Assembly: GCF_007747215.1 (NCBI RefSeq)
Contig: NZ_CP036273.1
Location: 1,160,322 to 1,224,321, forward strand
DNA: 64,000 nt
Direction of reading: 5' to 3'
From: Urbifossiella limnaea
GTDB lineage: Bacteria > Planctomycetota > Planctomycetia > Gemmatales > Gemmataceae
Shown: positions 1,008-60,252 of the stretch, in pieces
Position numbering within the stretch: the first letter of the stretch is position 1
How the letters are laid out: each line of letters starts with the position of its first letter
The notes under the pieces: model-generated
What the model saw: the letters and a program-made list of their open reading frames with translations, nothing else
Databases searched by the model: none
What the model was told of the DNA's origin: nothing
Position numbers and translations under genes: made by a program

Positions 1008-1170
1008 GGGTTTCAGGCCGAAGGCCTGACAGCCCTCAGCCCAGGGCAAGGGAGCGTCAGCGACCGCCGCCCTGGGTAGGGGGGCAGATCACCGTGCGTG
1101 CGAACCCAGGGCGGCGGCCCTTCGGGCCTTGCCCTGGGCTGAGGGCTCTCACCCCTTCGGGGTGAAAACC
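1008..1170. repeat. nested palindromic repeat element, family 1, copy A (about 163 bp)
   Basis: The 41-bp arm GGTTTCAGGCCGAAGGCCTGACAGCCCTCAGCCCAGGGCAA has an inverted partner at the right end. Inner IR CGCCGCCCTGGGT/ACCCAGGGCGGCG. Each arm carries a mini-hairpin CAGGCC-GAA-GGCCTG. A second copy is at 26064-26266. Confidence 0.7.
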
Positions 1171-2590: not shown

Positions 2591-4177
2591 ATGCCGACCG
2601 AGTACGACGCGATCATCATCGGCGCCGGGCACAACGGCCTCACCACCGCCGCGTACCTCGCCCGCGCCGGCTACAAGGTGCTCGTCCTCGAGCGCCGCGA
2701 CATCCTCGGCGGCTGCTGCATCACGGAAGAAATCTGGCCCGGGTACAAGGTGTCCACCGCGGCGTACGTCAACAGCCTGCTGCGGCCCCAGATCATCCGC
2801 GACCTGGAGCTGAAGAAGTACGGGTTCGAGATGCTGCCGCGCAGCCCGTCCTCGTTCACCCCGTTCCCCGACGGCCGCTACCTGATGATGGGGCCGGACA
2901 AGGACATGACCCGCCGCGAGATCGCCAAGTTCAGCACCAAGGACGCCGAGGCGTACCCCAAGTACGAGGCCATGCTGGAGAAGGTGGCCGACTTCCTCGA
3001 ACCGCTCCTCGAACAGACGGCGCCCGACCCGTTCAGCAACCGCCTCGGCGACCTGTGGAGCGTCGCCAAGACCGGCTTCGGCTTCCGCGGCCTCGGCCGC
3101 GACGTGGCCACCGACGCCGTCGAAATCCTCACCGGCGCCGCCCGCCCGATCCTCGACCGCTGGTTCGAGTCGGAGCAGCTGAAGGCCACGATCGCCACCG
3201 ACGCCGTCATCGGCGCCTTCGCGCCGCCGAGCCACCCGGGCACGGCGTACGTGCTGTTCCACCACGTCATGGGCGAGTGCAACGGCGTCCGCGGCGTGTG
3301 GGGCTACGTCAAGGGCGGCATGGGCACCATCTCCAACAGCATCGCGCAGGCGGCCCAGGCGAAGGGCGCGACGATCCGCAAGAACAGCGAGGTCGGCAAG
3401 ATTCTGGTGAAGGGCGGCAAGGCGGTCGGCGTCGCCCTCAAGGACGGCACCGAGTTCCGCGCCCCGCGAGTCATCAGCTGCGCCGACGCCAACGTGACGT
3501 TCGTGAAGCTGATGGACGCCTCCGACCTGCCGGCCGAGTTCCTGGCGCGGGTGAAGGCGATCGACTACTCCTCGGCGACGGTGAAGATCAACGTGGCGCT
3601 GTCGGAGCCGCCGCAGTTCACGGCGCTGCCGGGGAAGGGCGTCGGCCCGCAGCACCACGGCACGATGCACGTGTGCCCCGACCAGGACTACATCGAGCGC
3701 GCCTACGACGACGCCAAGTACGGCCGCCCGGCCCGCGACCCGATGCTCGAGTGCACGATGGCGACGGCGCTCGACGACACGCTGGCCCCGCCGGGGAAGC
3801 ACATCCTGAGCATGTTCGTGCAGTACGCCCCGTACCACCTCAAGGGCACGACGTGGGACCAGGAGCGGGACAAGTTCGCCGACCGCTGCTTCGACGTGCT
3901 GAACGAGTACGCGCCGAACTTCAAGGCGAGCGTGATCGACCGGGTGGTGTACGCGCCGCCGGACATGGAGAAGGCGTGGGGCATCACCGGCGGGAACATC
4001 ATGCAGGGGGCGATGAGCCTGTCGAGCATGGCGAGCTTCCGGCCGGTGGCGGGGTACGCCAACTACCGGACGCCGGTGCGCGGGCTGTACATGTGCGGCG
4101 CGGCGACGCACCCCGGCGGTGGCGTCATGGGCGCGTGCGGGCTCAACGCGGCGCGCGAGATTCTGAAGGACGGCTGA
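2591..4177 (+). CDS. FAD/NAD(P)-dependent oxidoreductase, phytoene desaturase (CrtI-like, COG1233) family
   Basis: N-terminal Rossmann motif YDAIIIGAGHNGLTTAAYLARAGYKVLVLERR. 528 aa collinear with the CrtI-like family. Confidence 0.8.
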   Translation: MPTEYDAIIIGAGHNGLTTAAYLARAGYKVLVLERRDILGGCCITEEIWPGYKVSTAAYVNSLLRPQIIRDLELKKYGFEMLPRSPSSFTPFPDGRYLMMGPDKDMTRREIAKFSTKDAEAYPKYEAMLEKVADFLEPLLEQTAPDPFSNRLGDLWSVAKTGFGFRGLGRDVATDAVEILTGAARPILDRWFESEQLKATIATDAVIGAFAPPSHPGTAYVLFHHVMGECNGVRGVWGYVKGGMGTISNSIAQAAQAKGATIRKNSEVGKILVKGGKAVGVALKDGTEFRAPRVISCADANVTFVKLMDASDLPAEFLARVKAIDYSSATVKINVALSEPPQFTALPGKGVGPQHHGTMHVCPDQDYIERAYDDAKYGRPARDPMLECTMATALDDTLAPPGKHILSMFVQYAPYHLKGTTWDQERDKFADRCFDVLNEYAPNFKASVIDRVVYAPPDMEKAWGITGGNIMQGAMSLSSMASFRPVAGYANYRTPVRGLYMCGAATHPGGGVMGACGLNAAREILKDG

Positions 4178-4223
4178 GGCCGCTTGCGGCGGGGTGTGCC
4201 TACGGATTGAGGCCTGACGCGCG

Positions 4224-4288
4224 TTAGGCCGGGGCGCAAGCCCCGTCGGGAGTTTGAACCCACGACGGGGCTTGCGCCCCGGCCTAAC
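4224..4288. repeat. palindromic hairpin repeat, family 2, copy A
   Basis: TTAGGCCGGGGCGCAAGCCCCGTCGGG...CCCGACGGGGCTTGCGCCCCGGCCTAA. Arms contain GGGGC-GCAA-GCCCC (a GNRA-type tetraloop). Second copy at 49692-49766. Confidence 0.65.
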
Positions 4289-4383
4289 AGCTTGGCTGAC
4301 TTCCGCAGGGGCATCCACGGCTGACCCCGGCTTGACCCGCCCCCCGGGCTTCGCTATCTCCCGGCGGTCCCCGGGAGTAGCCC

Positions 4384-5712: not shown

Positions 5713-6308
5713 CGGCCGCGCAGCTGACCCCGGCCGACGCCCCCGCCGCCGCGCGCACGCTGGCGGCGGCGTTCGCCGGTTACCCCCTCCTGCGGGCGGT
5801 CGCGCCGCACAACTCCCCCGCGGTCGAAGCCTTCTGCGGGATGCTCGTCCGCTACACGGCCGCGCTCGGCACCGCCTTCGCCACGGCCGACGGCGCCGCG
5901 GTGGCGTGCTGGCTGCCGCCGGATCACCCGACGCTGACCGCGCGCGGCCTCCTTCGCGCCGGCGTGCTCCCGCTGGCATGGCACCTCGGGCCGGCCGGCG
6001 GCGTGCGGCTGCTGCGGCTCGACCGGCAGTTCGACCGGGCGCGGCGAAGTCACGTCCCGGGGCCGCACTGGTACCTGCTGTTGCTCGGCGTCGCCCCGCA
6101 CGCCCGCCGGCAAGGCCTGGCCCGCGCCGCGGTCGGGCCGGGCCTCGCCGCCGCCGACCGCGCCGGCCTGCCGTGCTACCTGGAGACGCAGGACGCGGCG
6201 AACGTGCCGGCCTACGAGCGGCTGGGGTTCGCGCTCGTGGGCCGCCGCCGCGTCGCCGGCGGGCTGGGGAGCTGGGAGATGAGGCGGGCCGCCGGCCACG
6301 ACGGGTGA
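5709..6308 (+). CDS. GNAT family N-acetyltransferase
   Basis: GTG start overlaps the upstream stop (GTGA). C-terminal half shows a GNAT fold signature (HWYLLLLGVAPHARRQGLARA...GLPCYLETQDAANVPAYERLGF). Confidence 0.6.
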   Translation: MTAAQLTPADAPAAARTLAAAFAGYPLLRAVAPHNSPAVEAFCGMLVRYTAALGTAFATADGAAVACWLPPDHPTLTARGLLRAGVLPLAWHLGPAGGVRLLRLDRQFDRARRSHVPGPHWYLLLLGVAPHARRQGLARAAVGPGLAAADRAGLPCYLETQDAANVPAYERLGFALVGRRRVAGGLGSWEMRRAAGHDG

Positions 6309-16245: not shown

Positions 16246-16295
16246 TGTATTCTTCCGCCGCTCGCGGCGTAGCGCGGCGTACCCCCGCCACGCCG
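16246..16295. repeat. palindromic repeat, family 3 (CGCCGCTCGCGGCGTAGCG arms), copy A
   Basis: CCGCTCGCGGCGTAGCG...CGCCACGCCGCGAGCGG in the divergent pyrD/ABC promoter region. Related copies at 21079-21124 and 58500-58547 share the flanking AA(G/A)CCCCGAGCC. Confidence 0.5.
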
Positions 16296-16403
16296 CGAGC
16301 GGCGAAGCCCCGAGCCTCGCCGCCCCCGTCGCGCGCCAATATGTTCGCTGGGACCGCGAATCCCTCTCCGTTACGTTCCCCATCCCGACCCCCGGAGGCC
16401 GCT

Positions 16404-18787: not shown

Positions 18788-18850
18788 GGCGAGCGGCCGG
18801 CGTGAGCCGGCTGTTCCCACGCGCATCTGATGCGCGTGGGAACAGCCGGC

Positions 18851-18867
<17 letters not shown>
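18788..18867. repeat. 80-bp perfect palindrome (39-bp arms, 3-nt loop)
   Basis: GGCGAGCGGCCGGCGTGAGCCGGCTGTTCCCACGCGCATC-TGA-GATGCGCGTGGGAACAGCCGGCTCACGCCGGCCGCTCGCC. Begins right after the permease stop and spans the pxpB stop codon. Confidence 0.7.
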
Positions 18868-19531
<664 letters not shown>

Positions 19532-21070: not shown

Positions 21071-21078
21071 TCGGGTTC

Positions 21079-21124
21079 CGCCGCTTGCGGCTTAGCGCTG
21101 CCCCGCGCTAAGCCGCAAGCGGCG
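21079..21124. repeat. palindromic repeat, family 3, copy B (convergent terminator position)
   Basis: CCGCTTGCGGCTTAGCGC-TGCCCC-GCGCTAAGCCGCAAGCGG between the rimO stop and the ctpA stop. Confidence 0.55.
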
Positions 21125-21142
21125 AAACCCCGAGCCATAACC

Positions 21143-22557: not shown

Positions 22558-22643
22558 GTGACGGGGTGACGGGGTGACGGGGTGACGGGGTGAGAAGAAT
22601 ACCCCGTCGTCACCCTTCACCCCTCACCCCGTCACCCCGTCAT
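22558..22643. repeat. tandem octamer (GTGACGGG)x4 array forming a hairpin with an inverted partial array
   Basis: GGGGTGACGGGGTGACGGGGTGACGGGG (four G4 tracts), loop TGAGAAGAAT, then CCCCGTCACCCCGTCA inverted copies. Lies 30 bp upstream of the ctpA start and about 190 bp upstream of the TIGR03000-like gene. Confidence 0.7.
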
Positions 22644-24084: not shown

Positions 24085-24732
24085 TCATTTCCGCTCGAAC
24101 ACCTCGGGCAAGTCCTTCAGCGTGTTGAGCCCGAACGCCTGGAGGAACTTCTTGGTGGTGCCGTACAGCTGCGGCCGGCCGAGCGAGTCGTGCCGGCCGG
24201 ACACGCGCACCAGCCCCTTCTCCATCAGCTGCCGCACCACCTCGCCGCACGACACGCCGCGCACCTGCTCCACCTCCGCCCGCATCACCGGCTGCCGGTA
24301 CGCGATCACCGCGAGCGTCTCCAGCGCCGCCGGCGTCAGCCGCAGGTCGTGGCCGGTGCGCCGCAGGCGCGCCAGCCACGGGGCCATCGTTGGCCGCGAC
24401 AGCAACTGGTAGCCGCCGGCGATCTCCGCGACCTCGAACGCGCTGCCGCCGGCGTCGAGGAAGCCCTTCAGCTTCTCGGCGAGGGCGCGCCCCTCCGCCG
24501 TGTCGGCGAGGCCGGCGGCGTCGGCGAGGCGGCGGGGGCTGAGCGGCTCGTCGGCGACCAGCAGCACCGCCTCGACGCGCGCCAGCTTGGCGTCGCGGGC
24601 CAGCGGGTCGTCGGGCGGCGCCTCAGTCGGTGCGGCGCGGAAGCGGAGGGAGGCGGGGCGCACGGCGTTGCCGGGCCGGGCCGAGAACGGCCGGCGGGCG
24701 GCGGACGCGAAGGACGGTGCGGACAGACGCAT
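24085..24732 (-). CDS. scpB: segregation and condensation protein B
   Basis: VEAVLLVADEPLSPRRLA...AGGYQL...LETLAVIAYRQPVMRAEVEQVRGV...LGRPQLYGTT matches ScpB winged-helix repeats. Confidence 0.75.
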   Translation of the reverse strand: MRLSAPSFASAARRPFSARPGNAVRPASLRFRAAPTEAPPDDPLARDAKLARVEAVLLVADEPLSPRRLADAAGLADTAEGRALAEKLKGFLDAGGSAFEVAEIAGGYQLLSRPTMAPWLARLRRTGHDLRLTPAALETLAVIAYRQPVMRAEVEQVRGVSCGEVVRQLMEKGLVRVSGRHDSLGRPQLYGTTKKFLQAFGLNTLKDLPEVFERK

Positions 24733-24817
24733 GGCGGCGCTGTGGGGCGTTCGGTACACTTCCGACATCCGGGCGGTAAAGTACCCGCCCCGCTGCCGTC
24801 GTGGAAGGCAGGTCGCC

Positions 24818-26035
24818 GTGCCCCCGTTCTGGTCCGAATACCTGCGCGAGCCCTGGAACCTCGTCGCCTTCGGCGTCACGGCCGCGGCCGCGGTGTTCGC
24901 GTTCATCAGCGGGTCGGCGTTCCTCGCCATCTGGGCCGAGCGCAAGGTCAGCGCCCGGATGCAGGACCGCCTCGGCCCCACCCGCGTCGGCCCGTTCGGG
25001 CTGCTGCAGTCCCTCGCCGACGGCATCAAGCTCATCTCGAAGGAGGACCACGCCCCGGCGGGCGCCGACCGCGTCCTGTTCCGGCTCGCCCCGTACCTGG
25101 CGTTCTGCGCCGCGTTCTGCGGGTACATCGCGCTGCCGTTCGGGGCCGGGCTCGTCGCCCACGAGCTGAGCGTGGGGGCGTTCTTCGTGCTGGCGGTGCT
25201 CAGCAGCGAGGTGTTCGGCGTGGTGCTGGCCGGGTACGCCTCCGCGAACAAGTGGTCGCTGTTCGGCGGCGTCCGCGAGGCGGCGCAGGTGGTGAGCTAC
25301 GAGGTGCCGCGGGCGCTGTGCGTGGTCGTGCCGGTGTGCGTGGTCGGCACCCTCAACCTGACCACGATGGGCAACCTGCAGGTCGGCTGGTTCTGGAACT
25401 GGACGGCGTTCCACGACCCGTTCACGTTCCTGGCGCTGGTGGTGTTCTTCATCACCGCGACGGCCAGCTGCAAGCGGGCCCCGTTCGACCTGGCGGAGGC
25501 CGAGAGCGAGCTGGTGGCCGGCTTCCTGACGGAGTACAGCGGGTTCCGCTGGTCGATCTTCTTCCTGGCCGAGTACGGCAGCATGTTCGCGGTGAGCGGC
25601 CTGGCGGCGCTCCTGTTCCTGGGCGGCTGGCACACCGGCCTCCTCCCGTTCGAGCCGGCCGCGGAATGGGGCTTCTGGTGGGGGAACCTGCTGAACCTGT
25701 CCGTGTTCACGGCGAAGTGCTGGGTCGGCGTGCTGGTGATGATGTGGCTGCGCTGGTCGCTGCCGCGGCTGCGGATCGACCAGGTCATGACGACGTGCCT
25801 GCAGTACTTCCTGCCGATGGCGTGCGCCCTGCTCATTGGCGTGTGCCTGTGGCAGCTCCTGGCGCCGCCGGGGCTGACGGCCGCGACGCGGTACGTGCTG
25901 AGCTTCGGGACGCTGGCCGTGGTGGTGCTGCTGGCGGTGAGCGTGCTGAAGCCGCCGGCGATGAGCGGCCCCGCGGGCCATCTACCGGGCGCGTGGGCCG
26001 GCCGGGCGACGCCGCTGACCGCGGGCCGGAAGTAG
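24818..26035 (+). CDS. nuoH: NADH-quinone oxidoreductase subunit H
   Basis: GTG start. AIWAERKVSARMQDRLGPTRVGPFGLLQSLADGIKL, a classic NuoH/ND1 N-terminus. Eight TM helices. No other nuo genes in the window. Confidence 0.85.
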   Translation: MPPFWSEYLREPWNLVAFGVTAAAAVFAFISGSAFLAIWAERKVSARMQDRLGPTRVGPFGLLQSLADGIKLISKEDHAPAGADRVLFRLAPYLAFCAAFCGYIALPFGAGLVAHELSVGAFFVLAVLSSEVFGVVLAGYASANKWSLFGGVREAAQVVSYEVPRALCVVVPVCVVGTLNLTTMGNLQVGWFWNWTAFHDPFTFLALVVFFITATASCKRAPFDLAEAESELVAGFLTEYSGFRWSIFFLAEYGSMFAVSGLAALLFLGGWHTGLLPFEPAAEWGFWWGNLLNLSVFTAKCWVGVLVMMWLRWSLPRLRIDQVMTTCLQYFLPMACALLIGVCLWQLLAPPGLTAATRYVLSFGTLAVVVLLAVSVLKPPAMSGPAGHLPGAWAGRATPLTAGRK

Positions 26036-26063
26036 CCGCACGAGCAGCCACGGGGATGATCCC

Positions 26064-26266
26064 CGGGTTTTCAGGCCGAAGGCCTGACAGCCCTCAGCCC
26101 AGGGCAACGCCCTGGGTACGCGGCGCGAACCACCCCGCAGGCTGAAGGCCTGCGAGCCGGCTCGCAGGCCTTCAGCCTGCACGGCATTTCGATCCCCGTA
26201 CCCAGGGCGGCGGTGCTTCGCACCTTGCCCTGGGCTGAGGGCTGTCAGGCCTTCGGCCTGAAAACC
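26064..26266. repeat. nested palindromic repeat element, family 1, copy B (about 203 bp)
   Basis: Same 41-bp terminal inverted arms as 1008-1170 (perfect here). Inner IR CGCCCTGGGTAC/GTACCCAGGGCG. Central 44-bp palindrome GCAGGCTGAAGGCCTGCGAGCCGGCTCGCAGGCCTTCAGCCTGC. Confidence 0.7.
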
Positions 26267-26303
26267 ATGCACTGACCCCACGCGGGTTGAGAAGCGCCGA
26301 CCC

Positions 26304-28628
26304 GTGAAGCCCTACCTGCTGCTCGCGCTCCTGTGGGCGCTCTACTTCCACCCGCTGCTCCTCCACCCCACGCAGACGCTGTTCGCCCCGTACTCCGACC
26401 TCCTCGCCGAGCACCTGCCCGCGCGGGTGTTCCTCGTCCGCGAGTGGCGCGCGACGGGGGAGTTGCCGCTGTGGAACCCGTACCACTTCTGCGGCTCGCC
26501 GTTCGTCCACGACATCCAGGTCGGCGCGTTCTACCCGCCGTACGCCGTCACGCTGCTGTTCCCCGAGTCGGCCGCCGGCGCCGTCATGAGTTGGGTGGTC
26601 GCGCTGCACGTCCTCGCGGCCGGCGGGTTCACGTTCTTCTACGCCCGCAGTAACGGCCTGGGTGAAGCGGGGAGCCTGGTCGCGGCGGTGGGGTGGATGT
26701 TCGCCGGGAAGTGGATCACGCACCTGCTTCTGGCCGGGCACACCATCACGATCGGACTGGCGTGGTTGCCGTTGGTGCTGGTCGGCCTCGAACGAGGCAC
26801 TCGCACGGGTGGCGTCGGCCCGGTGCTGGGGACGGGCGCGGCGCTGGCGCTGATGATCCTCGGCACGCACCCGCAGTGGACGTTCTACGCCGGCGTGTTC
26901 GCCGCCTTCTGGACCCTCCCGCTCGACCGCGCCGCGCTGCGCCGCTGGCTCCTGACCGGGGTGGGTGCTGTGGTCGTGGCGCTGGGGCTGACCGCGGTGC
27001 AACTGCTGCCGACGATTGAAGCCGCGGGGTTGTCGGCGCGACAGGCCGGGCTCACGTCGACGGAGGCGCTGCGCGTCGGCCTTCAGACGCTCACCGCGCT
27101 GGCCGGGCCGGGCGCGGCCTACGACCCGCCGGCGTCGTGGGAGGCCCGCGGGCTCGTCGGCCTGTACCTGCTCGCCGCGGCGCTCGTGGCCCCGACCCTC
27201 GGCGGGCCGCGGACGCGCTACCGCGCGTGGGTGCTGGCCGGGCTCGCCGTGTTCGGCCTCGGCGGCGCGGCGCTGGTGGACTGGCTCCCCGGCTTCAACC
27301 GGTTCCGCGTGCCGACACGAATGCTCTTGATCGCCGGCTTCCCGGTCGCCGTCCTCGCCGGCACCGCGACCGACGCCCTGGTCCGCGCGCAGTGGTCGGA
27401 GGCCGTTTTGGGCGTCGTCCGCCGACGGGTGTGGCTGGTGGTGGTGGTGGTCGCGCTGCCGGCCCTGCTGTGGGACTTCCCCGGCCTCCGACCCGGCCCG
27501 CGGTCGTGGGGGCGCGACGGGAGTTACTGGCTCGTCGCCGCGGGGCTGCTGCTGCCGGCCCTCGGGTGGTTCGCCGACACGCCGTCGCAGCGTACGTTCC
27601 GCTGGCTCGCGGTGCTCATCGGCGAGTCGTTCCTGCTCCTGCCCAACGTGGTCGTCCTGCCGCAGGCCACGATCTACCCGCCGACGCCGACGCTGGAGTA
27701 CGCCGCGACGCGGCTCGAACCCGGGGCAGGGCGGGTGATGGACTGGGACAGCGGCAGCGGTCCCGGCGACCGGCTGGCGGTGTTCGGCGGCGGGTCGCCG
27801 CTGCCGCTGGCCCGCGGGGTCGAGACGCCGCGCGGGTACAACCCGCTGGACGTGAAGCACTACCGGGAGTTCATCGGGTTCGTGGTCGGCGACCCGTCGC
27901 CGGTGGTCGGCATGAGTCCGGTCGCTCAGCCGGTGCTGCCGAACTTCGAGGTCGGTCACCCGCGGCTGTTCGACCTGCTGAACACCCGCTACCTGTCGGC
28001 CCCGGAGGCGCACCAGCCCGGACCGGGTTGGTCGGCGGTGACCGCCGACCCGGCCCCGCCGCTGATCCCCCCGCTCCCGCCGGACCCGCCCCCGCAGTTG
28101 TCGCCGCACGTTCTGTACGAACGGCCGTCGGCGTTCCCGCGGGCGTGGGTCGTGCCCGAGGCCCGGCCGATGCCACCCGCCGGCGCGTACGAGGCGCTCG
28201 TGAACACCGACCTCGGCCGCGTCGCGCTGCTCGCCACCGAGCGACACCTGCCGCCGCCCGCCGCATCGACGCCGGCCGCGCGAATCGCCGAGTACCGACC
28301 CAACCGCGTGCGCGTGAAACTGGCCGGCGACGGCGGCGGCTTCCTCGTGCTGGCCGACGTGTGGTACCCCGGCTGGGTGTGCCGCGTGGACGGCTCGGAA
28401 GTGCCGGTCGAGCGAGCCGACCACGCCTTCCGCGCCGTGCAGTTGCCCCCGGGGGCGAAGGAAGCCGTCTTCACCTTCGAGCCGCGGTCGTACCGGATCG
28501 GTTGGTGGGTGAGCGTGGCCGCGCTGGCGCTGGTCGGGGTGGCGGGTTTGTTCCGGCTGACCGTCAACCGTTCCCGCCGGTCGGGAGTTGTCACGCGTGC
28601 CGATTCGGTTTCCGGGCCGAGTGTGTGA
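26304..28628 (+). CDS. YfhO-like polytopic membrane protein (putative glycosyl/lipid transferase)
   Basis: N-terminal half has about 12 TM helices and a penultimate TM before a large C-terminal soluble domain. The architecture resembles the YfhO/ArnT-like superfamily. Family assignment is tentative. Confidence 0.6.
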   Translation: MKPYLLLALLWALYFHPLLLHPTQTLFAPYSDLLAEHLPARVFLVREWRATGELPLWNPYHFCGSPFVHDIQVGAFYPPYAVTLLFPESAAGAVMSWVVALHVLAAGGFTFFYARSNGLGEAGSLVAAVGWMFAGKWITHLLLAGHTITIGLAWLPLVLVGLERGTRTGGVGPVLGTGAALALMILGTHPQWTFYAGVFAAFWTLPLDRAALRRWLLTGVGAVVVALGLTAVQLLPTIEAAGLSARQAGLTSTEALRVGLQTLTALAGPGAAYDPPASWEARGLVGLYLLAAALVAPTLGGPRTRYRAWVLAGLAVFGLGGAALVDWLPGFNRFRVPTRMLLIAGFPVAVLAGTATDALVRAQWSEAVLGVVRRRVWLVVVVVALPALLWDFPGLRPGPRSWGRDGSYWLVAAGLLLPALGWFADTPSQRTFRWLAVLIGESFLLLPNVVVLPQATIYPPTPTLEYAATRLEPGAGRVMDWDSGSGPGDRLAVFGGGSPLPLARGVETPRGYNPLDVKHYREFIGFVVGDPSPVVGMSPVAQPVLPNFEVGHPRLFDLLNTRYLSAPEAHQPGPGWSAVTADPAPPLIPPLPPDPPPQLSPHVLYERPSAFPRAWVVPEARPMPPAGAYEALVNTDLGRVALLATERHLPPPAASTPAARIAEYRPNRVRVKLAGDGGGFLVLADVWYPGWVCRVDGSEVPVERADHAFRAVQLPPGAKEAVFTFEPRSYRIGWWVSVAALALVGVAGLFRLTVNRSRRSGVVTRADSVSGPSV

Positions 28629-49635: not shown

Positions 49636-49691
49636 GGTCCTGCGCCGCTCCCTTCTTTGCCCGCGATCACGCTGGTTCGCCGGGGGGTATC

Positions 49692-49766
49692 GTCCTGTTA
49701 GGCCGGGGCGCAAGCCCCGTCGGAGATCAGACACCCGACGGGGCTTGCGCCCCGGCCTAACAGGAC
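49692..49766. repeat. palindromic hairpin repeat, family 2, copy B
   Basis: GTCCTGTTAGGCCGGGGCGCAAGCCCCGTCGG-loop-CCGACGGGGCTTGCGCCCCGGCCTAACAGGAC. Same arms as 4224-4288 with a different loop. Confidence 0.65.
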
Positions 49767-49794
49767 GCTGCACCGCACCAGATACGACACGAAT

Positions 49795-53545: not shown

Positions 53546-55006
53546 TTACTTCTTGCCGCCGCCGTTGCCCCACGGGCCGGCCTTGCTGCGGTCGGCCTTC
53601 TCGGCGGTCCTCTCCTCGCGGGCCGGCCGGGCGTCCGGCCCGCCGCCCTTGCCCGTCATCCCCGGGCCGCCGCCGGTGCCGCCGAAGCCGGGGAAGCCGC
53701 CCTTGCCGCCGCCGCCACCGGCCATCGACCCGCCCTTGCTGCGCCCGCTGCCGGCCTCCGGCGTCTCGCCGTTCTGGATGGCGATCAGCCGGTCCACTTC
53801 GGCCTTCGTGGCGGTCACGCGGATCAGCTCCAGCGGGGCGATGAAGCCGTCCTCGTTGGCGTCGAGTTCGCGGAACTCCGCGACCGTCTTCCCGCCGACG
53901 GACCGCCACTCGTACATGTTGATCTGCCCGTCCTTGTCCTGGTCGTACTCGGCGAACCAGTCCGGCAGGCCGGGCGGGAGCTTGCCGTAGCGGATGCCGA
54001 CGTTCGAGAAGTCGTCCTTCTTCTCCTCGCGGCGGCCGCCGAACCCGCCGGGGCCGCCGAACCCGCCGCCCTCACCGGTGCCGCGGAAGTCGTTCCCGAA
54101 CTGCGGCTGGCCGGTGCCGCCGCCGCCGGCGAGGCGGAGTTGCAGCGACTTGTACTCGTCCAGGCTGACGAACCCGTCGCGGTTGGTGTCGTAGTCGTTC
54201 CACATGCCCCGGGTCCGCTCGGAGGCCTCGTCCGGGGATAGCTTCCCGTCGCCGTCGCGGTCGCCCATCTTGAACCGCCGCTCGATCTCCTCCTCGGACG
54301 AGCCGCCCTTCCCGCCGAAGCCCTGCCCGCCGAACCCGCCCTGCTGCATCGGGAAGCCACCCTGCTGGCCGAAGCCGGGCTGGCCGAAGCCGGGCTGCCC
54401 GCCGGGCTGACCGAAGCCCTGCTGCCCGCCGGGCTGCCCGCCGCTCATCTTGGCGCGGGCCAACTCCTGGTTGCGGGTGGCGAACTGGAGGAACTGGTCC
54501 TTGGTCATCACCCCGGACTCGGGGTACGGCTGCGTCCCCATCCGGTCCGAGATCATCTTGCTCATCGCCCGGGTGTCGGGGGAGATGCGGCTGAAGTCGA
54601 CATAATCGGTGCCGCCGGTTTGCTGGAGCAGTGTGGTCCACTGGCTCTCGGGGTCGAAGCCGCCGCGCCGGCCACCACCGCCGCCGCCCTGGGGAAAGCC
54701 GCCCCCACCCTGGGGAAAGCCGCCGCCGGGCTGTTGGAAGCCGCCGCCTTGGGGGAAGCCGCCTCCGCCTTGGGGGACGCCGCCGCCGGGTTGAATCTGC
54801 ATCCGGAAGCCGCCTCCGCCTTGGGGGAAGCCGCCCCCACCTTGCGGGAAGCCACCGCCGCCCTGGGGGAAGCCGCCTCCGCCCTGCGGGAAGCCACCGA
54901 AGCCACCCTTGCCGCCCTTACCGCCGCCGGGCTGGCCGGCGATCGGACCCATGGTGAACAACAGCATTCCGAGGACGAAAAACGCCCCGCTGACGCGCGC
55001 GCACAT
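53546..55006 (-). CDS. secreted EF-hand domain protein with Gly-rich GGGGFPQ repeats
   Basis: Signal peptide. Four canonical EF-hand loops (DRDGDGKLSPDE, DTNRDGFVSLDE, DQDKDGQINMYE, DANEDGFIAPLE). N-terminal (GGGGFPQ)n and GQPGFGQ repeats encoded by 21-bp tandem DNA repeats around 54650-54900. Confidence 0.7.
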   Translation of the reverse strand: MCARVSGAFFVLGMLLFTMGPIAGQPGGGKGGKGGFGGFPQGGGGFPQGGGGFPQGGGGFPQGGGGFRMQIQPGGGVPQGGGGFPQGGGFQQPGGGFPQGGGGFPQGGGGGGRRGGFDPESQWTTLLQQTGGTDYVDFSRISPDTRAMSKMISDRMGTQPYPESGVMTKDQFLQFATRNQELARAKMSGGQPGGQQGFGQPGGQPGFGQPGFGQQGGFPMQQGGFGGQGFGGKGGSSEEEIERRFKMGDRDGDGKLSPDEASERTRGMWNDYDTNRDGFVSLDEYKSLQLRLAGGGGTGQPQFGNDFRGTGEGGGFGGPGGFGGRREEKKDDFSNVGIRYGKLPPGLPDWFAEYDQDKDGQINMYEWRSVGGKTVAEFRELDANEDGFIAPLELIRVTATKAEVDRLIAIQNGETPEAGSGRSKGGSMAGGGGGKGGFPGFGGTGGGPGMTGKGGGPDARPAREERTAEKADRSKAGPWGNGGGKK

Positions 55007-55263
55007 GGCCGACCCTCCGGGGCGCACAGCCCCTACTCACGATCCTAAACTCCATCCCCCGCCGCGTCACGACGAATTGGCGCGAGTCTCATAGGAGTTT
55101 CAGAACCGCGACGGCTCGCACCGCCGCAAGCGGCGGCAGCGGTTGTGCGACCCGCGCCGGGGAGCTGCGAGCTCTGCGTCGGCCTTCCGCTTTGCTTCAC
55201 ATTCGCCGGTCCGGTAAAGTGGAGTATTCTGCCCGCCGCGACCGCACCTCCGGAGAAACTCCC

Positions 55264-58491: not shown

Positions 58492-58499
58492 GGTGACCT

Positions 58500-58547
58500 C
58501 GCCGCTCGCGGCGTAGCGGCGTCGACGCCGCTACGCCGCGAGCGGCG
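58500..58547. repeat. perfect palindrome, family 3, copy C (terminator-like position after the tricorn gene)
   Basis: CGCCGCTCGCGGCGTAGCGGCG-TCGA-CGCCGCTACGCCGCGAGCGGCG. 22-bp arms, 9 bp after the stop codon. Confidence 0.6.
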
Positions 58548-58577
58548 AATCGTTCCCCCTCCAACCCCCTCTCCCCC

Positions 58578-60080
58578 ATGCCACCCGTCGTCCTCGCCAT
58601 CGACCAGGGCACCACCAGTTCCCGTGCCGTCGTCTACGACCCGACGACGTTCGCGCCGCTCGGCGTCGCCCAGCAGGAAATCGAGCAGCACTACCCGCGC
58701 GACGGCTGGGTCGAGCACGAGCCGGAAGACATCTGGTACTCGGTCGCCCGGACCTGCCGCGAGGCGCTCGCCGCCGCGGGCCGCGCCCCGAAGGACGTGG
58801 CCGCCGTCGGCATCACCAACCAGCGCGAGACGGTCGTGGTCTGGGACCGCACCACCGGCCGCCCCGTCCACCGCGCCATCGTCTGGCAGGACCGCCGCAC
58901 CACCGACTTCTGCCGCGCCCGCGCCGCCGACGGCCCGTGGCTCACCGCCAAGACCGGCCTCGTTCTCGACCCGTACTTCAGCGGCACGAAACTTCGCTGG
59001 CTCCTGGAACAGCAGCCGAACCTGCGTGCCGCCGCCGAGCGTGGCGAGCTGGCCGCCGGCACCATCGACACGTTCTTGATGTGGCGGCTGACCGGCAACC
59101 ACGTCACCGACGCGACGAACGCCAGCCGCACGCTCCTGTTCGACATCCACCGCATGGCGTGGGACGATGAGCTGCTGACCTACTTCGGCGTGCCGCGGGC
59201 GCTACTGCCGACCGTGAAGCCGAGCGCCGGCGACTTCGGGGTGACGAAGGGTCTGGACTTCTTGCCGGACGGCGTGCCGGTCCGCGGCGTGGCCGGCGAC
59301 CAGCAGGCGGCGCTGTTCGGGCAGGCGTGCTTCGGCCCCGGCGAGGCGAAGTGTACCTACGGCACCGGCGCCTTCCTGCTCCTCCACACCGGTGACACCC
59401 CGGTGGCATCGCGGCACCGCCTGCTCACGACCGCCGCCGCGAGCACCGACGGGAAACCGAAGTACGCGCTCGAAGGGGCCGTGTTCGTGGCCGGCGCCGC
59501 GGTCCAGTGGCTGCGCGACGGGCTGCACCTGTTCCGCACCGCGGCCGAGTCGGAGGCGCTGGCGGAGAAGTCGAACCCGGCCGAGCCGGTGCTGTTCGTG
59601 CCGGGACTGGTGGGCCTCGGCGCCCCGCACTGGGTGCCCGAGGCCCGCGGCGTGATGTTCGGCCTCACCCGCGCCACGACGGCCGCCGACCTGGCGCGGG
59701 CGGCGCTGGAGGGCGTGGCGTTCCAGGTGGCCGACCTGATCGACGCCGCCGACCACGACCTGGGGGCGGCGGGCGCCGCGCCGCTGAAGGTGGACGGCGG
59801 CATGGCCCGCAACGACCGCTTCCTCCGCACGCAGGCCGACTTCCTGGGTCGGCCCGTGGTGCGGGCCGCGGAGGCGGAATCGACGGCACTGGGGGCCGCG
59901 ATGCTGGCCGCGGTCGGCGCCGGCCTGACGGACGAGGCCGCGCTGCGGGCGCGGTCCGCCGCGGGCACGCGGTTCGACCCGACGCTTCCGGCGGGCGAGC
60001 GTGCCGCACGCCGGGCGGCGTGGCAGAAGGCGGTGCGGGCGGTGGTGAGCTTCTACGCGGCGGACGGTTCGGCGTCGTAG
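58578..60080 (+). CDS. glpK: glycerol kinase
   Basis: LAIDQGTTSSRAVVYD, GITNQRETVVVWD, GTGAF, FVPGLVGLGAPHW... full-length GlpK (500 aa). Confidence 0.9.
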   Translation: MPPVVLAIDQGTTSSRAVVYDPTTFAPLGVAQQEIEQHYPRDGWVEHEPEDIWYSVARTCREALAAAGRAPKDVAAVGITNQRETVVVWDRTTGRPVHRAIVWQDRRTTDFCRARAADGPWLTAKTGLVLDPYFSGTKLRWLLEQQPNLRAAAERGELAAGTIDTFLMWRLTGNHVTDATNASRTLLFDIHRMAWDDELLTYFGVPRALLPTVKPSAGDFGVTKGLDFLPDGVPVRGVAGDQQAALFGQACFGPGEAKCTYGTGAFLLLHTGDTPVASRHRLLTTAAASTDGKPKYALEGAVFVAGAAVQWLRDGLHLFRTAAESEALAEKSNPAEPVLFVPGLVGLGAPHWVPEARGVMFGLTRATTAADLARAALEGVAFQVADLIDAADHDLGAAGAAPLKVDGGMARNDRFLRTQADFLGRPVVRAAEAESTALGAAMLAAVGAGLTDEAALRARSAAGTRFDPTLPAGERAARRAAWQKAVRAVVSFYAADGSAS

Positions 60081-60214
60081 GTCGGGTCGGGGCCTCGAGA
60101 CCCGACGTGGGGCACGAGTTACGAACGACGGAATCCGCAGCGTCCTCCCTGCTAACATTCCTCCGATTGCCGTTCGACGCCCGCGTCGGGTCTCGAGGAC
60201 TCGACCCGACCTAC
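60077..60214. repeat. 138-bp element bounded by 12-bp terminal inverted repeats GTAGGTCGGGTC/GACCCGACCTAC
   Basis: Left end GTAGGTCGGGTCGGGGCCTCGAGACCCGACG (includes the glpK stop TAG). Right end CGTCGGGTCTCGAGGACTCGACCCGACCTAC. Sub-terminal CTCGAGACCCGAC/GTCGGGTCTCGAG also pair. Confidence 0.5.
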
Positions 60215-60252
60215 AACTATAGCAACCCGCCGCCGCACCCCGGAGTCGATCC

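Follow-up and report, generated by a model that had tools for sequence, protein, structure and literature searches.

REPIN-RAYT, or REP-associated transposase, systems were reportedly described by Nunvar in 2010 and by Bertels and Rainey in 2011. For IS608 TnpA and E. coli TnpA-REP, recognition of a foot and hairpin in single-stranded DNA (ssDNA) and cutting and rejoining without duplication have been demonstrated experimentally. IS200/IS605 elements are not known to have terminal inverted repeats. REP doublets together with a REP-associated Y1 transposase make up the REPIN-RAYT or REPtron systems (Di Nocera 2013, PMC3733652; Quentin 2018, PMC6006769). TnpA-Y1 subclass 1.2, which comes mainly from Cyanobacteria and Bacteroidetes, is low-copy, without the properties of insertion sequences (IS) and without REP, and it generally has no terminal secondary structures (Quentin 2018, PMC6006769). 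Acido-Lenti-1 (RF01687) is a function-less Rfam family of the type "Gene; sRNA", and its seed was drawn from Lentisphaera araneosa, Koribacter, the planctomycete Rhodopirellula baltica and metagenomes (Weinberg et al. 2010, PMC2864571). No function was given in that study, which mentioned only occasional proximity to group II introns (PMC2864571), and part 1 of the 14 parts of its annotated Acido-Lenti-1 supplement contains no link to transposase genes. A 2026 preprint presents Acido-Lenti-1 as little known and annotated as ncRNA in Tannerella (bioRxiv 10.64898/2026.02.09.704811).

The 64-kb stretch of DNA analysed here (the window) has a G+C content of about 73% and contains two members of a nested-palindrome family, copy A and copy B. 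Their parts are as follows.

1008-1170, no strand: copy A, whole; GGGTTTC ... GAAAACC, a short version without the central palindrome
1014-1076, minus strand: copy A, left arm unit; RF01687 at 32.1 bits over the full model (1-46); predicted to fold as ssDNA into two hairpins
1014-1028, read on the minus strand: copy A, left arm, outer mini-hairpin CAGGCC-GAA-GGCCTG
1036-1039, read on the minus strand: copy A, left arm, linker foot TCAG
1040-1047 and 1069-1076, read on the minus strand: copy A, left arm, stem CCCAGGGC / GCCCTGGG with a 21-nt insert inside
1077-1104, no strand: copy A, central spacer, mostly non-palindromic
1105-1164, plus strand: copy A, right arm unit; RF01687 at 29.0 bits over the full model; predicted DNA fold; sub-hairpin covariation in 37 units
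1105-1112 and 1131-1138, plus strand: copy A, right arm, stem CCCAGGGC / GCCCTGGG
1116-1128, plus strand: copy A, right arm, sub-hairpin GGCCC-TTC-GGGCC inside the stem
between stem and outer mini-hairpin, plus strand: copy A, right arm, linker CTGAGGGCTCT
1150-1164, plus strand: copy A, right arm, outer mini-hairpin CACCCC-TTC-GGGGTG, a compensated variant
26066-26266, no strand: copy B, whole; terminal arms perfect over 42 nt
26072-26116, minus strand: copy B, left arm unit, short form CCCAGGGC-AAC-GCCCTGGG with no insert in the stem; RF01687 at 34.4 bits; predicted DNA fold
26137-26180, no strand: copy B, central palindrome of 44 nt with the halves GCAGGCTGAAGGCCTGCGAGCC and GGCTCGCAGGCCTTCAGCCTGC; predicted DNA fold
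26201-26260, plus strand: copy B, right arm unit, long form with sub-hairpin GGTGC-TTC-GCACC; RF01687 at 32.6 bits; predicted DNA fold

As the initial annotation had stated, both copies are intergenic; each lies between co-directional genes, which were called from third-position GC content. Copy A is flanked on the plus strand by an unnamed 281-aa gene (121-966) and a 198-aa gene whose homologs are named (NUDIX-family) phosphoesterase (1221-1817), and copy B by the plus-strand genes of NADH dehydrogenase subunit H (24500-26035) and a YfhO-like membrane protein (26304-28628). The window contains the 21-mer arm core AGCCCTCAGCCCAGGGCAAGG in two inverted pairs (four occurrences), with none expected from shuffles (n = 100). 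The terminal inverted arms that had been claimed for the element are perfect in copy B, whereas those of copy A are complementary at only about 38 of 44 positions; the inner inverted pair is perfect over 14 nt in copy A (1064-1077 with 1104-1117). The mini-hairpin CAGGCC-GAA-GGCCTG, said to be present in every arm, was found in three of the four, and the right arm of copy A carries instead its compensated variant, still a perfect hairpin with a 3-nt GAA/TTC loop. The two centres differ, as had been noticed, since copy B has its 44-nt palindrome there and copy A none. Conservation over 67 arms falls outside GG-TTTTC, and the inverted complementarity of the flanks decays at the same boundary. 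In folding, proposed earlier as a check, the elements fell far below shuffles (z = -8.6 and -9.2 for the two strands of copy A, z = -17.7 for copy B), and each arm on its own is predicted to form separate hairpins as ssDNA.

When the arm 18-mer GCCCTCAGCCCAGGGCAA was scanned against one genome per species in blocks of 8 kb, 94 blocks matched; the family is abundant in Gemmataceae and in other MAGs of Planctomycetota. Sixty-two blocks came from Planctomycetota MAGs, including 29 from Gemmataceae STL-PLA24, the closest relative of the window (93% protein identity of the phosphoesterase); 11 came from Bacteroidota, six others had the full arm context and 15 were bare matches without hairpin context. 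These loci (individual loci are given below as L numbers) contained 24 complete elements, which with the two of the window make 26 on one modular plan. Each half consists of GG-TTTTC, where element conservation ends, a mini-hairpin, a linker, CCCAGGGC ... GCCCTGGG with or without a sub-hairpin, about 20 variable nt and the central palindrome, and the mirror image follows. Copies in Bacteroidota (Prevotella, Bacteroidaceae and Porphyromonadaceae) have the same plan and an arm that is partly identical in sequence. The units are arranged head-to-head, tail-to-tail (L103, L009), in arrays or inverted around a transposase gene. In being built as mosaics from hairpin units that alternate in orientation, some of the modules being optional, they resemble the BIMEs of E. 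coli, which are mosaics of REP units and linkers, but they share no sequence relationship with these and differ in organism and associated enzyme class. A literature search on the arm sequence gave only unrelated eukaryotic and viral papers, and one on Gemmata with REP gave nothing.

Several observations on the spread of the family were made in passing. Gut and rumen Bacteroidota MAGs (L017, L018, L024, L037, L051, L061, L072, L074, L081 and L093) have the arm core AGCCCTCAGCCCAGGGCAACGCCCTGGGT together with the whole modular plan, as do one Phycisphaeraceae and one Thermoleophilaceae MAG (L076; L078/L080). In a Saprospiraceae MAG (L052, ~5980-6120), a tandem array of the 24-nt unit GCCCTCAGCCCAGGGCAATTTCAG contains the arm foot and half-stem only. 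An "outer module" (GTTTCGAGTCCGGCGG...) beside some copies was excluded from the element, being confined to a subset of genomes (Urbifossiella, SCN18). One MAG contig (JANLUE010000393.1) ends inside an element arm (L075, 5163), and short-read assemblies of Gemmataceae genomes probably break at these repeats.

A scan of all open reading frames (ORFs) of the fetched loci for an HUH...Y motif found three proteins adjoining arms (L075, L051 and L074). In all nine related loci examined, arms lay at most about 150 nt from a Y1 gene, in seven of them on both sides, and in five of the loci a single element has the gene between its halves. In L075 (Gemmataceae), where an ORF of 148 aa occupies exactly this place, the innermost part of each end is one half of the "central palindrome". 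Six further genes were examined, in L136, L137, L138, L142, L143 and L146. The gene is likewise located between element halves, with both ends in place, in L137 (Planctomycetaceae), L142 and L146, while in L143 complete gene-less elements with the central module of copy B stand on either side of it. Both ends flank the gene in L051 (Porphyromonadaceae) and one end in L074, and partial or adjacent units occur near the gene in L136 and L138. In Persicobacter (L141), the protein is 42.7% identical and the architecture is kept, with a main stem that is entirely different and fully covaried (CGATGGGT/ACCCATCG). Inverted repeats of about 110 nt form the ends on the two sides of the Y1 gene. Comparison with L075 and L137 showed that the halves of the central palindrome of copy B correspond to the inner ends around the gene, and comparison with these loci and copy B that the spacer of copy A is the slot occupied by the central module or the transposase gene in fuller versions. 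The foot tetranucleotide is TCAG in the window and most copies, GTAG in L137, ATAG in L136, ACAG in L138 and TTAG in L141, only the final AG being constant among these. No Y1 gene was found within the 64-kb window. Separately, we observed that the arm DNA is more conserved than the protein: the core is identical across phyla, and the Y1 proteins of Bacteroidota and Gemmataceae are only ~42% identical.

With Pfam Y1_Tnp the L075 protein scored 79.8 bits, and with the NCBIfam IS200/IS605 transposase model NF033573 it scored 60.4 bits (cut-off 55); the L051 and L074 proteins gave 44-50 bits with the latter, below its cut-off. The NCBIfam REP_Tyr_transpos model NF047646, whose cut-off is 80 bits, gave 15.8 bits for the L075 protein and also a score of 23.3 bits, and a phmmer search of the ORFs of the 94 loci and the window with an approximate E. 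coli RAYT query gave no match. Exact look-ups of two proteins of the window and of the Urbifossiella limnaea Y1 protein returned no record. The protein has the HuH motif DHVH, WQ and the Y motif YIENQEEHH, and its homologs are numerous and nearly all of 148 aa, with each protein cluster on few contigs. It shares with TnpA-Y1 subclass 1.2 the length of 148 aa, DHVH, WQ, Y---Q--HH and the low copy number, and judged by motifs and length only it fits this subclass. It differs from the published picture of subclass 1.2 in that structured repeats stand beside nine of the nine genes examined here, in Planctomycetota and Bacteroidota. In the literature searched, with incomplete coverage, no paper linked subclass 1.2 or Acido-Lenti-1 to such repeats, and no later work on subclass 1.2 was found.

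In our interpretation, copies A and B are likely to be gene-less, REPIN/MITE-like derivatives of a Y1 transposase unit that are mobilised in trans as ssDNA hairpins; for the copies in the window, such mobilisation is probable from the comparison of sequences. The full unit would be a small Y1 gene (HUH, IS200-like) with a structured inverted end of about 110 nt on either side. An end would be a chain of hairpins, in which the outer mini-hairpin with its GAA/TTC triloop is followed by a 12-nt linker whose last four letters are an xxAG foot (TCAG in the window), the foot lies directly beside the 8-bp GC-rich stem CCCAGGGC/GCCCTGGG with an optional sub-hairpin inside, and an inner hairpin follows. 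The gene-less form would be two such ends joined, resembling a MITE or a REPIN, in which two REPs in inverted orientation make one long hairpin. We assume that a cognate Y1 enzyme is encoded once elsewhere in the genome of the source organism. This enzyme would recognise the foot plus hairpin in ssDNA and would cut and rejoin without making a target-site duplication, and the sites of new copies would be immediately downstream of genes. We infer the action of the enzyme on the arms, the ssDNA mechanism and any activity of the system in the source genome.

As in REPIN-RAYT systems, hairpin units occur outside genes as inverted doublets in many copies, each doublet folding into a single long hairpin. 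Also shared are a GC-rich stem with a short conserved foot immediately on its 5' side, a Y1/HUH gene of low copy number with repeats inverted on its flanks (here in related genomes), the lack of target-site duplications and a location near gene 3' ends. The system would work like REPIN-RAYT but departs from it in the clade of the enzyme and in the foot: RAYTs have the Y motif Yxx(x)NP (class 2) and a GT[AG]G foot, whereas the present protein, with YIENQEEHH, stands outside the RAYT clade and the foot is xxAG, with GTAG in L137 only. A further difference is that a single palindrome of 20-40 nt is found there, and two to four hairpins in about 110 nt per end here.

We compared this interpretation with that of an ordinary selfish IS200-family insertion sequence which spreads horizontally with its MITEs, as opposed to a REPIN-RAYT-like system with a resident single-copy enzyme. 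A selfish IS would agree with the NF033573 score of the L075 protein (60.4 against 55), and horizontal transfer could account for the identical arm core in Planctomycetota and Bacteroidota. IS200/IS605 elements and their PATE-type derivatives also have hairpins near their ends and no target-site duplications. However, their ends are not inverted repeats, being defined by same-strand subterminal hairpins without terminal inverted repeats, and their gene copies are usually multiple and near-identical, whereas the present system has inverted ends of about 110 nt and a low-copy gene. Each protein cluster occurs on few contigs, which also argues against a spreading IS, and the 14 contigs with P0129 reduce to essentially one neighbourhood: the setting is identical in 12, and the other two have the same upstream gene and flanks. 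In two Planctomycetota genomes, L137 (12-1947) and L138 (102-1947), the Y1 gene is directly downstream of orthologous DUF1501 genes. Identity is 85% for these neighbours and 67% for the Y1 proteins. The Y1 gene appears to have a fixed place in the genome and to change faster than the gene next to it. Among 72,556 plasmid records, only two had the Y1 protein. The DUF1501 synteny, the near-absence from plasmids and the single neighbourhood of P0129 give a slight hint that the gene is resident and vertically inherited, and not a roaming IS. The subclass as such is low-copy and lacks IS properties (Quentin et al. 2018, PMC6006769). Altogether we consider a selfish IS unlikely and prefer gene-less derivatives of a Y1 unit with a resident enzyme.

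The insertion sites and gene context were examined in the window and its relatives. At the site of copy A, STL-PLA24 has the same two genes with a 9-nt gap. At the site of copy B, the metagenome orthologs have a gap of 9-12 nt in three cases, 62 nt without a palindrome in one and different palindromic elements in three, one of which carries units like Acido-Lenti-1 whose relative orientation is reversed (the orthologs of window 26035-26304 that we compared were L101, L102, L103 and L106 versus L105, L115 and L134). Because the orthologs hold short gaps or different palindromes, the copy B site was filled independently across lineages, and the nuoH-yfhO junction is an insertion hot spot at an apparent operon junction. 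The borders between filled and empty states are not clean at either site; 30-50 nt of extra, unrelated sequence lie beside each copy, and thus no single insertion event can be reconstructed. A MAFFT alignment of the filled and empty sites of copy A was uninformative, and inspection by eye revealed neither clean borders nor duplications there. Among the 26 complete copies, a flanking direct repeat of at least 4 nt was found in none at nine boundary offsets. With many copies in many genomes, orthologous sites that are empty or otherwise occupied, and a Y1 gene between or beside the arms in relatives, the REP-like mobile nature that the initial annotation had suggested is supported.

None of the 26 elements lies inside a called ORF. 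By rough gene calls, the flanking gene pairs were ++ in seven cases, +- in six, -- in five and -+ in none, and many copies are only 6-20 nt away from a stop codon. A position near stop codons and never between divergent genes could mean that the main role of the element is to regulate host genes from their 3' ends, for example as a terminator, as a hairpin that stabilises mRNA or as a site where a protein binds, and that its spread is secondary; both window copies are located between co-directional genes and may be co-transcribed. On the other hand, a T-run precedes the hairpin and an A-run (GAAAACC) follows it, with no U-run after the hairpin, and the same junction in relatives works with a gap of 9-12 nt or with unrelated palindromes. 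No promoter-like or terminator-like site was found at the element on either strand, in agreement with the earlier view that it is not a simple terminator. A primarily regulatory role is accordingly improbable.

We next consider the hairpins themselves. Covariation was analysed in 37 distinct long-form units whose outer stems were required to be perfect at selection. In these units, 99.7% of the cells pair and double-sided changes were counted in 58 cells, compared with 20.6 in shuffles, and none of 500 shuffles reached the observed score; for the two outer helices this covariation is partly built in, pairing having been the selection criterion. Because the outer helices were thus preselected, the informative result is that of the inner sub-hairpin, which was outside the selection: 98.9% of its cells pair, and three of the five pairs have double changes. 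The loops on one strand are GAA, GCA or GTA, closed by C-G. Triloops of the type d(C-GNA-G) form unusually stable DNA mini-hairpins, and by this analogy the loops are compatible with recognition as ssDNA.

At the gathering threshold, Rfam gave no match in the whole window. In E-value mode, every arm of the window aligns to RF01687 over all 46 positions at 29.0-34.4 bits, below the gathering score of 37 bits. Arms of relatives gave 27.7-34.6 bits (L005, L016, L018 and L024), and the best score was 36.4 bits in L137. Matches to miRNA families in the E-value scans merely reflect long hairpins and were rejected. The arms and Acido-Lenti-1 share an 8-bp stem, a linker of about 12 nt starting with CU, a 5-6-bp stem and a 3-nt loop of the UUC type, and the Acido-Lenti-1 seed also has multiple copies, arrays, inverted pairs and the covarying two-hairpin layout. 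They differ in that here a sub-hairpin is often inserted in the first stem, the units are found in Gemmataceae and Bacteroidota, and what Rfam classifies as an sRNA gene forms the outer part of a transposase-flanking inverted end.

This resemblance suggests another reading, in which the arms are genes or parts of a structured small RNA and the palindrome arises from two divergently transcribed copies. The full-length matches and the covarying hairpins, in the seed as in our units, speak for it. However, every match in the window falls short of the gathering score, promoter-like and terminator-like sites are absent, and covariation is equally expected of DNA hairpins read by a Y1 enzyme. Moreover, units placed head-to-head, tail-to-tail, in arrays and inverted around a transposase gene behave like transposon ends, and copies appear and disappear at orthologous sites. 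We regard an sRNA gene as highly improbable. The structured-RNA part of the initial annotation is right about the likeness to an Rfam family, but an RNA function is superfluous for explaining the data.

The reading of the arms as DNA ends of a Y1 unit leads to a broader proposal, for which the case is evenly balanced: Acido-Lenti-1 may be not an RNA gene but the recognition end of a REPIN-like DNA system that is driven by subclass 1.2 and common to Planctomycetota and Bacteroidota, perhaps also to Lentisphaerae/Acidobacteria. It would then be a second, independent lineage of resident Y1 enzymes with populations of hairpin repeats alongside the proteobacterial RAYT-REPIN. The proposal gives an Rfam family that is annotated as ncRNA in genomes, and has been without a function since 2010, one that can be tested, and it supplies candidate DNA substrates for a Y1 subclass reported to have none. 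It would extend REPIN-like hairpin repeats to Planctomycetota and Bacteroidota and account for the intergenic gaps packed with nested palindromes in these high-GC genomes, whose repeats also break MAG assemblies. The nuoH-yfhO site, filled differently in each relative, provides a natural series for insertion targeting.

A cut-and-paste MITE of a DDE transposon, the classical form with terminal inverted repeats and target-site duplications, would have the long terminal inverted repeats, small size, many copies and intergenic location seen here, and a different palindrome family in the window does have an 8-nt duplication, but this reading is barely tenable, because no direct flank repeat of at least 4 nt accompanies any of the 26 copies at any boundary offset, the sole gene type found between arms is that of a Y1 transposase, and the DDE_5 gene near L136 is not between arms.

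The different palindrome family just mentioned (GTTAGGCCGGGGCGCAAGCCCCGTCGG...) is located at 4178-4324 of the window (core 4223-4288), with a further copy at 49684-49774. Compared with STL-PLA24 (L095, ~7600), the former is a clean insertion of 147 nt right after the stop codon of an amine-oxidase-like gene, with an 8-nt direct repeat, ACGGCTGA, at its two borders (4170-4177 and 4317-4324) that looks like a target-site duplication. Unlike the element of copies A and B, this family may be a classical MITE. More long intergenic palindromes with a mini-hairpin in each arm were seen at 18788-18868 (perfect 40-nt arms), 21073-21130, 58499-58548 and 16256-16304, 60074-60217, and 22559-22642 (inverted TGACGGGG repeats). 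The source genome carries several distinct hairpin-repeat families. At 54657-54922, eight in-register copies of a 71-nt stretch, about 21 nt apart and rich in GCCGCC and CCCTGGGG, lie inside a long minus-strand ORF (53546-55036) and probably encode a Gly/Pro-rich repeat. Finally, where the window has one methyltransferase gene (1905-2489), STL-PLA24 has two adjacent ones (L095, 4684-5911) in otherwise syntenic DNA.
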